From a virus (taxonomy: Duplodnaviria; Heunggongvirae; Uroviricota; Caudoviricetes): a stretch of 35,817 nucleotides of DNA. Position 1 is the stretch's first letter; each line of letters starts with the position of its first letter. A program made the position numbers. Location of the stretch: positions 1 to 35,817 of the IMG/VR virus record IMGVR_UViG_2703718836_000012, one strand, 5' to 3'. This document shows, piece after piece, positions 30,001 to 33,000 of the stretch.

Positions 30001-33000
30001 CGTTTGTCGTAGCACGGCCCCTCAATGTTGTACCCGGCGGTGGTAATGGCCCACATCAGTGGCTGGCGTCGCGCCCCCATCCCGGTAAGCATCGTGGTGT
30101 AAAGCGCATCTGTGGCGTGCTCGTGATATTCATCCACCACGGCACAGTGGGGTGATGAACCATCACCGGGGTTACCGATCAGCGGTTCAAACCGCGCACC
30201 ATCCTCCGGACGGTTCATGTTTGAGGCGTTAACCTCAATCCCGAACGCTTCCGTCAGCATGGGTGTGCGTTTACACATCAGTCGTGCCGGACGAAAGACT
30301 TCCCACGCCTGTTTCTCCGTCGTGGCACCGGAATACACTTCCGCGCCGAACTCGTTATCACAGGCAAAACAATACAGGGCAACACCGGCAGAGATTGCCG
30401 ATTTGCCGTTCTTACGGGGAATTTCGGTATACACCTCCCGGAAGCGGCGCAACCGGGTGCCTTTATTGACCCAGCCAAACGCACAGCAGATCACAAATAG
30501 CTGCCACGGCTCCAGCGTGATGGGCATCCGTTTAAATGCCCACTCACCCTTGGTGTGCGGCAACAGCTGAATAAATTTGGCGGCCCGTTCAGCCAGGTCC
30601 TTGTCGAAGCGGTAACGAAACGACTTACTTTTTTCCGCCATCAGGTCATCAAGATGGCGCTGGCAGGCCTGAATCACAAACTGGCAGGCAACAATCTTTC
30701 CGCGCACGACATCCCGGGCATACTGATTGGCAGCATTTACGTTGGGGTAAGATTTCCGGCTCATGATTCGATGATTTTCAGAAACGGGTTAGTGGCTTTC
30801 TTCTTCCCCGCCAGGCCAATCAGACGCTGGCGGCTGCTGGGGTCGAGTCCGAGCATTGCCCCCGTGCTGCTCATCTCGGACTCCTGTTCTTTTTTGGCGG
30901 TCAGCTCCGGATTTTTGACCATGCCGCCCATTGCACCGGTGATGGTGTTGCCCTGTCTGGCAATATTTTTCACGGCACGTCGCCAGAACTCGTAGGCCAC
31001 GCACCACCGCTCAAGCACCGCGAGGTCAGTCACGCACAGCAGGCCCTGACCGCAGAGTTCTTTGGTTGTCAGTTGCCACATGATCGTGGCGAGAGGGAGA
31101 TCTTCTTCAGCGAACCACTCCGGTGGATCAACACCTTTGATGGGCGTAAAAACAGGTTCATCTTTATTCAGGGCTCGCTTGCCGGGGTTTCCGGCCAGCG
31201 CCTTGCGCGCCGTTGGCTTGGGGCGACGCCCGGAACGCCCCGCCGTTCCAGCCATATGCGGCACTCCTGGTTAAATTTCATTTTTCGCGGGTATAAAAAA
31301 ACGATGGGGCGGGCAGTCCGGAAGACGTCAGGCTGCAGGGATTTGACCCGCCCCTCCCCTCAGACAGTTGAGAATTATTATCACTTTAAACGTTCACGGG
31401 CCGTCTTCGCCTTATGACACGGCCAGCACAGACTCTGCAGATTACTGTCAGCATCAGTGCCGCCATGCGCTTTAGGGATGATGTGGTCAACAGTTTTCGC
31501 CTCACGCACCACACCAGCACGCAGACATAACTGACACAGACCTTTGTCACGCTTCAGAACACGCGCGCGGATACTGTCCCACTTCGAACCGTAGCCGCGC
31601 TGATGACGGGATTGTCCAGGTTTGTATTGCTTCCAGCCTTCGCTTTTGTGGCTTTCGCAGTAGCCTGACTGGTCAGTAGTGGTATGGCGGCAGCCGCGAA
31701 CACGGCAGGCTTTCGGGGTTCGTGGCGGCATAAATGCTTCCCTTTAAGTTATTACGATGGAACAGACCATAGAAATGGCAATAAAAAACCGCCCGGAGGC
31801 GGTTCAATTATCATCTCGATAAACTAAATCAGATCACCAATGTATTTTGCACTAATTGAAATTTGCATCTGAGGCATTCCGACCACAGATCCATTTAACA
31901 GGTAATCACGTCCTCGTTCCTGCAAAGAAAGACTCAATTCAAAGTTCTTTACCCCAGGGAAAACCGAGGTGACATTTAAATCATGCTGCGATACGCGCAG
32001 AATAAGTTGGCTACCGTCAATTTTTCCCTGATACGTAAAACCAAAATCTCCGCCGTTTACTGCATTGTTTTTGACAACTACGGTACCATTACCAAAATCA
32101 CGTTGATTGCTTCTGAAAACAACAAAATAGATACCATCTTTCATGTGTAAAGCCCTTTAAAAGAGTCACCAAAATCAGGTGCTTTGTATCTATTGGGCCA
32201 TCACATATCAAATCAAGGAACAAAACAAAGTTAACATCATTTTTTTTGCATGATGTGACCACGCTCAACTTCAATCCTTCTGATGTCAGCTTTATCGGTA
32301 TTACACTGCGCCAATGCAGACAACAAGGCGACATTCAGATCTAAGCTCGAGCCCCACGTAAAATGATCAGGTAAATCAGGCTGAGGGGTTTCAGCCGTCA
32401 GGGTGGCTGGTAACGGAACTACCGGAACCTGGACGTAAACTGTTCGCGTACTTCCGCAACCGGTCAGCAGCGGCAGCAGGCACAGGACGTGAAGCACAAT
32501 CATCATCCGCAACAGCCACTTTGATATCTTCCTGGGTTCTCTGTGACTCCAGTGCGATCTGCTGTTTTGCATGTTGATTCGCCTCCTGAATGATGTTCGT
32601 TATTGCCATAGTACGCAGAACATTCGCGGTGATAGCCTCAGTAGAATCAGCTCGCTGTTCCGCAGCATCAGCACGCTTCTGCTCCTCCAGAAACTTTCCA
32701 TGATAGTGATTCGCTGACCAGACAAGACCACCAGCGACACAAGCAATAAACGTTAAAATGAGCGCCCAATAACTCATCTTCATACCAGCAGCGCCGCCCG
32801 CGCCTTGTTGTATCGGACCTTACGATCCTCAATACCGTTCAGACCGCCGTTAATGATGCGCGTAACACGGTTAATATCGGCACCGTAGATCATGCAACCT
32901 TTAGAGGTGTAGAACCATGCAGCTGAGCGCGCAGCCTGTAGTTCCTGTTCCAGTTGTTCAGGTGAAGTCACCAGATCTAACTTCAGCGCCGCGCCACAGA

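Follow-up and report, generated by a model that had tools for sequence, protein, structure and literature searches.

A GC-rich inverted repeat between the HNH and terS genes of a defective SfV-type prophage very probably marks a known type of cos site

What is the function of a GC-rich inverted repeat that lies between an HNH endonuclease gene and the small terminase gene (terS) of a prophage? The repeat is found in a 35,817-nucleotide stretch of viral DNA (the window, from IMG/VR record IMGVR_UViG_2703718836_000012). A preliminary description took it for a candidate cohesive-end (cos) site, or else for a long-loop terminator. It appears that the element is the cos of an SfV/SfI-type temperate myophage with a P27 TerS, an HK97-type TerL, and a zinc-ribbon HNH protein, present here as an intact relic (probability about 0.92). 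The site is ordinary and already known, having been mapped experimentally in the near-identical phage SfI. The features of the region are as follows.

31381..31731, minus strand: gene for a 116-aa HNH endonuclease with a zinc ribbon (CxxxxC...CxxH) at the N-terminus and the HNH domain at the C-terminus
31347-31354, plus strand: HNH-proximal arm of the inverted repeat, CCCGCCCC, read from the sequence
31340..31359, minus strand: G-box GGGGAGGGGCGGG followed by TCAAATC, defined by conservation; holds the HNH-proximal arm
31316..31339, minus strand: variable spacer ending in a conserved GAC (31318-31316), defined by comparison of relatives
31315..31306, minus strand: cohesive-end 10-mer 5'-TGCCCGCCCC-3', identical to the mapped SfI end
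31306-31313, plus strand: terS-proximal arm of the inverted repeat, GGGGCGGG, read from the sequence
31280..31301, minus strand: T7 tract and then ATACCCGCGAAAAAT, spanning +5 to +26 relative to the top-strand nick; candidate cosB-like TerS site
31264..31268, minus strand: terS ribosome-binding site AGGAG, read from the sequence, 8 nt before the start ATG (31255)
30761..31255, minus strand: terS, P27-family small terminase (Terminase_4; PF05119, E=2.4e-21)
29052..30764, minus strand: terL, HK97-type large terminase with a truncated C-terminus (Pfam TerL_ATPase and TerL_nuclease)

The repeat itself is real. Both arms are present with a 33-nt spacer (31314-31346) and an A7 run (31295-31301), and all of these lie between the HNH gene and terS, as had been described. 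The span first assigned to the feature, 31287-31346, holds a genuine repeat, but its end cuts the second arm, so the feature extends to at least 31354 (31359 if the whole G-box is included). The length of 116 bp given for the intergenic gap holds if terS starts at the GTG at 31264; SfV orf1 is annotated from the ATG at 31255, and counted from there the gap is 125 bp (31256-31380). As a repeat, the element is statistically unremarkable because 8-nt repeats are common and the stability of the hairpin does not exceed that of shuffled sequences. There are 80 perfect 8-nt inverted repeats with a 3-60 nt spacer in the window of 35.8 kb, and ~0.26 are expected per 116 bp; the one between HNH and terS is unique among the 80 in having all-G/C arms. 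Hairpin stability compared with composition-matched shuffles gave z=-0.39 for RNA and z=-0.62 for DNA, and the RNA fold of the whole gap gave z=-0.12. The repeat is evolutionarily unremarkable as well, as its arms are two separately conserved elements. In other words, the functional unit is not the inverted repeat itself. The 8-bp repeat would arise incidentally, from a G-rich box that stands opposite a C-rich cohesive end, with no hairpin signal.

The organization becomes clear when the region is read on the minus strand. The HNH stop codon is followed by GGGGAGGGGCGGG-TCAAATC, the spacer up to GAC, TGCCCGCCCC, ATCG, T7, ATACCCGCGAAAAAT, the ribosome-binding site, and terS. Taken together, TCAAATC and the spacer separate the G-box from the cohesive end by 31 nt. 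The whole element (31280-31359) is located where the late operon ends and the packaging genes begin. The 10-mer consists of the terS-proximal arm plus TG, and the A7/T7 tract that was noted along with the repeat falls inside the 31280..31301 block. All sub-elements of the site, namely a G-box, a distance of 30-32 bp, a 10-mer at an AC/YG boundary (the stroke marks the boundary), and a T-tract with CCGCGAAA, are present, and the cos signature occurs only once in the window.

Direct experimental evidence for a cos site comes from phage SfI, whose 10-nt cohesive end, 5'-TGCCCGCCCC-3', was determined by sequencing the termini of virion DNA (PMC3636060). The 10-mer of the window is identical to it, and this mapped end supports the cos reading that had been put forward. 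The region is 98-99% identical to those of the Shigella phages SfV, SfI, SfII, and SfIV (98% for SfI). The SfI record is linearized at the mapped end, terminating in ...GGACTGCCCGCCCC and beginning with GTCGTTTTTTT, and the flanks of the 10-mer in the window match the ends of the SfI and SfV records, except that the four nucleotides just after the 10-mer are ATCG in the window and SfV and GTCG in SfI. The SfV and SfIV records are linearized 17 nt upstream of the SfI end, an offset indicating that depositors differ in where they place the end. The four Shigella phages share with the window the 10-nt end TGCCCGCCCC, the G-box, the GAC, the T-tract, and ACCCGCGAAAAA, and their terS genes are 98-99% identical (98.8% for SfV orf1). 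In SfV, the cos likewise lies between HNH (orf53) and terS (orf1). The differences are few: the variable spacer is CTCTGTGACC in SfV and SfI versus CCCTGCAGCC in the window, a matter of few substitutions, and the HNH side of SfV is merely 91% identical to the window. Headful packaging would have spoken against a cos site, but the papers on SfI, SfIV, and SfV report packaging by cos.

The site is also widespread. Escherichia phage SKA5 is a further intact relative that has this same cos. The 10-mer and its flanks are the same in six IMG/VR loci, and the region was found in 1129 of 5426 complete E. coli genomes (~21%). As a first scan of IMG/VR gave just relatives with 98-99% identity, a second scan used a divergent lead sequence. 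Conservation was then judged from a profile of 44 non-redundant relatives and from a MAFFT alignment made without anchoring. The architecture was present in 153 of 157 related loci, compared with 2.4% of shuffled sequences, and 49 of 50 non-redundant sequences carried AC[CT]G at a constant distance from an independent anchor. Within the profile, information content peaked at the G-box, which lies 30-32 bp upstream of the 10-mer in every relative examined; this spacing is held in loci of E. coli, Klebsiella, Pseudomonas, Moraxella, Psychrobacter, and Burkholderia, in HK97, and in Bacillus phage Gamma. The variable spacer is constant in length and differs in sequence even among relatives with 98-99% terS. 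The T7-ATACCCGCGAAAAAT block is near-invariant across terS clades of only ~50% protein identity. Two Burkholderia phage records begin close to the site, vB_SR1 starting 2 nt before the predicted 10-mer and vB_E173 within the G-box; these start points suggest that the records were probably linearized by convention, and they are weak evidence for ends. A text search of papers for the literal motif strings gave irrelevant matches only.

Which proteins act at the site? The HNH gene product is a packaging accessory nuclease. It matches Pfam PF01844 (E=2.2e-16), is 36% identical to HK97 gp74 (E=7e-11) and 35% identical to N.phiGamma (E=2e-16), and matches the structure of the GVE2 HNH protein (5h0m) over its full length (E=1.9e-12). 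TerL (PF03354/PF20441) is 25% identical to HK97 gp2 (E=6e-26). For TerS, no homology to HK97 gp1 was detected by BLASTP, Pfam, or hhalign, and a PDB sequence search gave no match; a single-sequence AlphaFold model (pLDDT 40) was set aside. As a result, the HK97 model of TerS-DNA interaction can be transferred by analogy only. N.phiGamma and the GVE2 HNH protein both nick CG^GT (PMC3592412; PMC4027164), the site in phage Gamma's own genome is GCG^GT, and the preferred site is YCG^GT (PMC4027164). The conserved AC/YG boundary agrees with this specificity of homologous nickases, and the window has CA^GT at the putative HNH nick where the canonical sequence is CG^GT. Some packaging HNH enzymes, HK97 gp74 among them, are apparently non-specific in vitro.

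A model for cleavage can be drawn from these observations. On the minus strand, the terminase would nick between 31306 and 31305; the nick on the plus strand would fall between 31315 and 31316 (GGGGCGGGCA^GTCC). As in HK97, the ends would then carry 3' overhangs of 10 nt. The plus-strand nick (GCA^GTC in the window and GCG^GTC in most relatives) may be made by or with the HNH enzyme and the other by TerL; a division of one nick each between HNH and TerL was suggested earlier in the literature. For the SfV group, a 3' polarity is suggested by the 10-nt 'gap' in run-off sequencing together with HK97. However, one paper reports 5' overhangs for Wbeta-like phages by PhageTerm (PMC8878798), which conflicts with an HNH nick at AC/CG. 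Downstream of the nicks, TerS may bind the T-tract/ACCCGCG/A-tract block and position or arrest TerL as it does in HK97. The T7-ATACCCGCGAAAAAT block is thus a candidate small-terminase (cosB-like) site, a proposal made by analogy, and T7 plus ATACCCGCGAAAAA is similar in position and composition to the site mapped for the TerS of HK97.

Comparison with well-studied phages places the site among known systems. HK97 has a 10-nt 3' overhang, and its gp74 HNH protein stimulates cos cleavage. The HK97 record ends in the 10 nt CGCCGCCAAA, which align with the 10-mer of the window. The layout is alike: the HK97 cos lies between the HNH gene and terS, and it consists of a G-run, 32 nt (~3 helical turns) ending in GAC, the C-rich 10-mer, and ACCCG with an A/T-tract downstream. 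TerL and HNH are homologous in the two systems. However, HK97 differs in the sequence of the 10-mer (CGCCGCCAAA), in its TerS gp1, in a gp74 without the N-terminal zinc ribbon, in an ACCCG block that is 4 bp farther from the nick, and in a separate ORF-sized stretch between the HNH gene and cos. The TerS site of HK97 was mapped at +15..+29, CTAACCCGATTTTTT, and its A-tract is essential (PMC11331095).

The Bacillus phages Gamma, Wbeta, and Cherry have the G-box GGGGCGGGTC, a 31-nt spacer ending in AC, a cohesive end starting with CGCC, and a downstream CGC(A)GAAAAAT block, and they encode a P27-family TerS, a PF03354 TerL, and a zinc-ribbon HNH protein 35% identical to that of the window. They differ in the mapped cohesive end, which is 9 nt (CGCCGCCCC) and aligns with the 10-mer, in the reported 5' polarity (PMC8878798), and in their Gram-positive host and genome of ~35% GC. 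Beyond the short blocks, they share no extensive DNA identity with the window.

The lambda cos offers a more distant parallel. Lambda has 12-nt 5' overhangs, no HNH partner, a gpNu1 TerS, and R-sites with IHF. Work by Wieczorek and Feiss in 2001 reportedly described lambda cosQ as a 7-bp element ~17 bp from cosN. The three-part logic of cosQ-cosN-cosB is the same, with an upstream element at a fixed distance, a partly two-fold-symmetric nick site, and a downstream TerS-binding region, and the G-box of the window is in a cosQ-like position. In contrast, gpNu1 is unrelated to the TerS of the window and the cos sequences have no similarity. The lambda cos facts used here were drawn partly from PMC6739421 and PMC7617512. 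A lambda-type cos was considered and rejected, as the TerS is Terminase_4 (P27), an HNH gene is adjacent, and the cohesive end is 10 nt with a probable 3' polarity.

Could the repeat serve another function? A rho-independent long-loop terminator between HNH and terS, with a GGGGCGGG/CCCGCCCC stem followed by U7, is very improbable and found no support. The T7 does lie 4 nt past the GC-rich arms on the transcribed strand, and the minimum-free-energy fold pairs the arms and lengthens the stem. However, a consensus scan makes no call at the repeat because the loop is 33 nt (usually 3-8) and the T-run is offset, and, by the scores given above, the folds of both gap and hairpin are no better than those of shuffles. 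The stem is broken in close relatives (GGGGGAGG, GGGACGGG, GGGGCGAG) without compensation while the T-tract is retained, covariation is absent across 20 10-mer types (p=0.47; RNAalifold covariation term -0.47), and the T-tract and ACCCGCGAAA are conserved as one block even where only 4-5 nt of complementarity exist. Furthermore, termination at this point of the late operon, just ahead of the terminase genes, would oppose expression, and a canonical terminator-like hairpin is present elsewhere (31786-31805). No known RNA family was found at the element (Rfam 15, 30500-32500); the sole match in that interval was a sub-threshold Yfr10 at 31773-31820, outside the element.

It is also unlikely, if somewhat less so, that the repeat is a structural signal, i.e., a cruciform or a pair of inverted sites for a dimeric protein, needed for recognition of cos by the terminase or HNH enzyme. 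What makes this idea attractive is that complementarity of 8 nt in the SfV group is accompanied by 7 nt (GGGGCGG/CCGCCCC) in the unrelated Bacillus phage Gamma, that the G-box resembles the G-rich strand of the cohesive end in inverted form, and that no other 8-nt inverted repeat of the window is all G/C. However, own and cross complementarity hardly differ across the 20 10-mer types (4.95 vs 4.80 nt, p=0.47), G-box variants within the TGCCCGCCCC group give runs of 4 to 8 nt, and HK97, whose cos is functional and mapped, has just 3 nt. The DNA hairpin score argues against a cruciform, and the center of symmetry is ~20 bp upstream of the nicks, whereas the symmetry flanking the nicks is GAC-N10-RTY. 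Finally, a chance GC-rich repeat without a packaging role, be it in this lineage or as a decayed remnant, can be given hardly any credence. The expected number of such repeats in a gap of this size and the defective state of the prophage are compatible with chance, but the match of the 10-mer and flanks to the mapped SfI cos and the six IMG/VR loci, the intactness of all conserved blocks, and the presence of the region in 1129 of 5426 E. coli genomes are not.

With the cos reading preferred, the G-box calls for an explanation of its own. It may be a separate element at a fixed distance, in a position like that of lambda cosQ, that is probably needed for cleavage or termination, and by this analogy it is a candidate cosQ-like element. 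A broader proposal, which spans Bacillus phage Gamma, HK97, SfV, and Pseudomonas, Moraxella, and Burkholderia phages, is tentative and falls somewhat short of even odds. It holds that the G-box (GGGG-N-GGG then TC-R-AA) is an undescribed universal sub-site of HNH-dependent cos, located three helical turns upstream of the AC/YG nick, which in the manner of cosQ would position TerL/HNH for bottom-strand nicking at termination. On this view, cos would be inherited in two halves, the upstream one together with HNH/TerL and the downstream one together with the TerS family, with the cut site as the place where recombination breakpoints fall. The G-box sub-site may already have been described, and the conserved box is a modest side lead beside a cos that is already known.

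The prophage that carries this cos is defective. Window positions 29183..31322 match SfV 2140..1 and positions 18692..29184 match SfV 17708..7216, and SfV nt 2141-7215 are missing. This 5.1-kb deletion removes the portal, protease, capsid, and head-completion genes along with the C-terminus of terL, so that, unlike SfV, the prophage is not self-sufficient. The deletion junction was absent from all 5426 complete E. coli genomes searched. As the portal, protease, and capsid genes are lost, the cos is a relic that the prophage cannot use alone; the site is probably idle here, and particle formation by the prophage is probably impossible. The relic could be cut only if a related helper phage supplied the machinery.

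What does the site mean for the phage family? It fixes the origin and direction of packaging, which would run leftward in window coordinates from 31305 through terS and terL, and together with the 5.1-kb deletion of head genes it identifies the prophage as a defective SfV-type cos element. For this window itself, the consequence is small. However, the anatomy of an HNH-dependent cos, with a G-box, three helical turns, AC/YG, a 10-mer, and a TerS block, is compact and testable. It could predict the genome termini of many HK97/P27-type prophages, the present cos alone being found in ~21% of complete E. coli genomes. It could also assign the strand nicked by the HNH enzyme and reveal satellites that borrow such cos sites.

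The site between HNH (a packaging accessory nuclease gene) and terS (small terminase gene) is the known cos of the SfV/SfI phage family, located inside a defective prophage. The 8-nt GC-rich inverted repeat at this site is a composite of two elements, the cohesive end and, upstream of it, a G-rich block with its own conservation (G-box, 31340-31359). The elements of the region are:

31731..31381, minus strand, HNH gene, coding
31347-31354, plus strand, HNH-proximal repeat arm CCCGCCCC, read from sequence
31306-31313, plus strand, terS-proximal repeat arm GGGGCGGG, read from sequence
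31295-31301, plus strand, A7 run, read from sequence
31264 (GTG) or, likelier, 31255 (ATG) to 30761, minus strand, terS, coding
30764..29052, minus strand, terL (large terminase gene), coding

On the coding strand the gap reads GGGGAGGGGCGGG TCAAATCC CTGCAGCCTGACGTCTTCCGGAC TGCCCGCCCC ATCG TTTTTTT ATACCCGCGAAAAAT GAAATTTAACC AGGAG TGCCGCAT ATG, and 33 nt separate the arms. A preliminary description of the repeat and its A7/T7 tract was accurate, except that it stopped at 31346 and so left out the second arm. The mechanical ORF start of terS (GTG, 31264) overlaps the ribosome-binding site AGGAG (31264-31268), and the likely start is the one given for SfV orf1, the ATG at 31255. With this start the HNH-terS gap measures 125 bp instead of the 116 bp first described.

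The HNH-to-terS region is 98-99% identical to that of Shigella phages SfV, SfI, SfII, and SfIV and Escherichia phage SKA5. In SfI, direct sequencing of virion DNA termini against the prophage defined a 10-nt gap, 5'-TGCCCGCCCC-3', and packaging was concluded to be of the cos type, as postulated for SfV (PMC3636060). An identical cos was reported for SfIV (PMC3851460). The SfI record ends in ...CTTCCGGACTGCCCGCCCC and starts with GTCGTTTTTTTATACCCGCG. The SfI 10-mer is present at 31315..31306 on the minus strand, and therefore the terS-proximal arm is the cohesive end itself. The flanks also match, except that GTCG follows the 10-mer in SfI and ATCG in the window. Thus, the earlier proposal of a cos site is supported by base identity with a mapped cohesive end. 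We infer 3' overhangs, as in HK97, because the run-off reads show a gap and not an overlap, as recessed 5' ends would. The minus strand would then be nicked at 31306|31305 and the plus strand at 31315|31316. In the SfV and SfIV records the linear sequence is opened 17 nt upstream of the point used for SfI, presumably by a different convention.

The proposed comparison with SfV/HK97-like cos sequences also showed a matching layout in HK97. The HK97 cos was defined biochemically: it has 10-nt 3' overhangs, its cleavage is stimulated by the HNH protein gp74, and the minimal TerS site spans +15..+29 (CTAACCCGATTTTTT), in which T16 and the G opposite C21 are contacted through their bases and the A-tract is essential (PMC11331095, PMC9410871). 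The HK97 record ends in ...GGGCAGGGGGGGGATCAAATCTTCAAAACCTTTGCCCCAAATGAC CGCCGCCAAA and starts with GTTTGAATTTAACGCTAACCCGATTTTTTT. HK97 and the window share a G-run with TCAAATC, about three helical turns to GAC, a C-rich 10-mer, and ACCCG followed by an A/T tract. Their TerL proteins (25% identity, E=6e-26) and HNH proteins (36% identity, E=7e-11) are homologous. No homology was detected between the window TerS and HK97 gp1: BLASTP found nothing, hhalign gave a probability of 0.7%, and gp1 had no Terminase_4 match.

The evidence speaks against a function of the inverted repeat as a unit. Across the window, 80 perfect inverted repeats of 8 nt occur with spacers of 3-60 nt, or ~0.26 expected per 116 bp; as a repeat, the element is no more than chance, although the GGGGCGGG/CCCGCCCC pair is the only one of the 80 with all-G/C arms. 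A long-loop terminator had been named as the alternative to cos. This reading was rejected. A terminator scan did not call the repeat, and its hairpins were no more stable than dinucleotide shuffles (RNA z=-0.12 and -0.39, DNA z=-0.62). No Rfam family matched the element.

The arms were compared in 48 distinct upstream sequences from relatives with terS 98-99% identical. The stretch from CTTCCGGAC through terS was essentially invariant and the HNH side variable; at several loci GGGGGAGG, GGGACGGG, or GGGGCGAG replaced GGGGCGGG while CCCGCCCC was unchanged. RNAalifold gave -7.95 kcal/mol with a covariation term of -0.47. Across 20 different 10-mers, a G-box was about as complementary to its own 10-mer as to those of other types (mean longest run 4.95 vs 4.80 nt, permutation p=0.47), and in HK97 the complementary run is only 3 nt. 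Because there is no covariation and the arms are broken without a matching change, arm complementarity is a by-product of a G-rich element facing a C-rich one. Neither the 8-nt match in the window nor the 7-nt match in Bacillus phage Gamma shows detectable upkeep by selection. The symmetry that actually flanks the nicks is GAC-N10-RTY (GTC in Klebsiella). A sharp mosaic boundary was also seen at cos in IMG/VR loci L005-L084, with a near-invariant CTTCCGGAC-to-terS side and a lineage-dependent HNH side and G-box variant, which suggests recombination breakpoints at or beside the cut site.

The same blocks appeared in an unanchored MAFFT alignment of diverged loci from Salmonella, Klebsiella, Pseudomonas, Moraxella, and Psychrobacter (terS identity 40-88%). 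The G-box Gs, AC before the 10-mer, GC at 10-mer positions 2-3, T5 then A, and CG..AA were invariant. Two IMG/VR scans added 160 loci. A detector of this architecture (AC+YG 35-70 nt upstream of terS, at least 9 G within -48..-28) was positive in 153/157 loci and in 2.4% of shuffles. AC[CT]G lay at a fixed offset from an independent GCGAAA anchor in 49/50 non-redundant sequences, and by inspection the G-box-to-10-mer distance was 30-32 nt throughout. A profile of 44 non-redundant sequences peaked at the G-box core, TC.AAA, AC|YGC..CCC, the T-tract, and AC.CCGCGAAATTAAAAAT.

The A7/T7 run belongs to a block of T5-7 followed by A-Y-R-M-CCGCGAAA-W-T. This T5-7/CCGCGAAA block is conserved across terS clades with only ~50% protein identity and is kept where the inverted repeat is broken. 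It resembles the HK97 TerS site in position (+5..+26) and composition; in HK97 the DNA shape depends on the A-tract. A comparable position in Gamma is occupied by CGCAGAAAAAT, and the Gamma TerS belongs to the P27 family, as does that of the window. By analogy, we propose the block as a candidate TerS site.

Gamma, which infects a Gram-positive host and whose genome has ~35% GC, was taken as an independent test. Its termini read ...GGGTAGGGGCGGGTCGAAAAACATTCAGGGCGGTCTGTCCGTAC|CGCCGCCCC|CTCAACTTCGCAGAAAAATCCG..., where CGCCGCCCC corresponds to the cohesive end mapped for Wbeta-like phages (PMC8878798), and it repeats the G-box, 31-nt spacer, and AC|CG boundary of the window. Gamma itself encodes an HNH, N.phiGamma, that nicks in a strand-specific manner at CG^GT, that is, AC^CG on the opposite strand (PMC3592412); another paper gives the motif as YCG^GT (PMC4027164). 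The CG^GT motif falls exactly on the left boundary of the Gamma cohesive end; Gamma's own site is GCG^GT and not the preferred YCG^GT. With N.phiGamma the window HNH shares 35% identity (E=2e-16) and the N-terminal zinc ribbon, which HK97 gp74 lacks; it also aligns from end to end with the GVE2 HNH structure 5h0m. At the inferred plus-strand nick the window has GCA^GTC; GCG^GTC stands there in HK97, Klebsiella, Pseudomonas, and some variants of the SfV group (L005, L044). This comparison fits an earlier suggestion that one nick would come from HNH and the other from TerL, a model that needs 3' overhangs. However, Wbeta relatives were reported, based on PhageTerm, to have 5' CGCCGCCCC overhangs (PMC8878798), which conflicts with the N.phiGamma motif at AC|CG, since that would yield 3' overhangs. 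Only the G-box may be new; in HNH-dependent cos sites it keeps a fixed distance of three turns, from Firmicutes to Proteobacteria.

Some loci depart from this arrangement. In L087 (Vibrio phage H2 PGK-2017, terS 50% identical, locus 335-701), HNH ends 6 nt before terS without an intergenic gap. Its cos therefore cannot sit between the two genes, and the rule is not universal. L171-L175, a variant lineage, keep the G-box and CCGCGAAATT block; ~60-45 nt upstream of terS they have GAACGACGGGGGGAACC, a G-rich core, where others have AC|YG and a C-rich 10-mer. Their cohesive end may thus be different or inverted. Several metagenomic viral contigs in IMG/VR (L157, L128, L104, L108, and L162) terminate only a few nt from the predicted cut: L157 begins directly behind the 10-mer seen in its sister L156, L128 begins 2 nt beyond the predicted nick, and others begin 7-9 nt upstream of AC|CG. 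These ends are suggestive, if noisy, indications of physical termini.

Other features of the window are:

31824-32144, minus strand, 106-aa ORF between lysis genes and HNH, low GC (39%)
13618-17931, O-antigen modification cassette: gtrA, gtrB, DUF6056 protein (413 aa), Acyl_transf_3 acyltransferase (16851-17900)
1-11565, second mobile element beside the SfV-like prophage
1-1215, integrase in the second element
4045-5076, phage major capsid protein E homolog in the second element
7456-8940, DEAD/ResIII helicase in the second element
10579-11160, second integrase-family fragment in the second element

The 106-aa ORF is absent from SfV at the corresponding position, has a borderline match to Pfam GrlR (T3SS negative regulator; 26.7 bits vs a cutoff of 26.8), and looks like a moron insertion. 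Downstream of it and just upstream of HNH lies a canonical terminator-like hairpin (31786-31805, minus strand; GAACCGCCTCCGGGCGGTTT then TTTATT), the real terminator candidate of the neighbourhood. The DUF6056 protein is probably the serotype-specific glucosyltransferase and not gtrV. Part of the cassette (14891-17900) has very low GC (33%), and a perfect 16+16 nt palindrome (17900-17931) follows the cassette. The element at 1-11565 may represent a satellite or a further cryptic phage. A tRNA gene was found nowhere in the window.

The prophage cannot make heads. In alignment to SfV, window 29183..31322 corresponds to SfV 2140..1 and window 18692..29184 to SfV 17708..7216, and therefore SfV 2141-7215 is absent. 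The missing 5.1 kb holds the last ~50 terL codons, portal, protease, major capsid, orf6-8, and part of orf9. At the deletion junction (29183-29184), terL is fused to the stretch that directly precedes the tail sheath gene. Among 5426 complete E. coli genomes, the cos region occurs in 1129 and this junction in none. The window holds a single copy of the cos signature. This cos is intact but stranded in a prophage without head genes, and a helper phage of the same specificity and a second cos for termination would be required to package from it.
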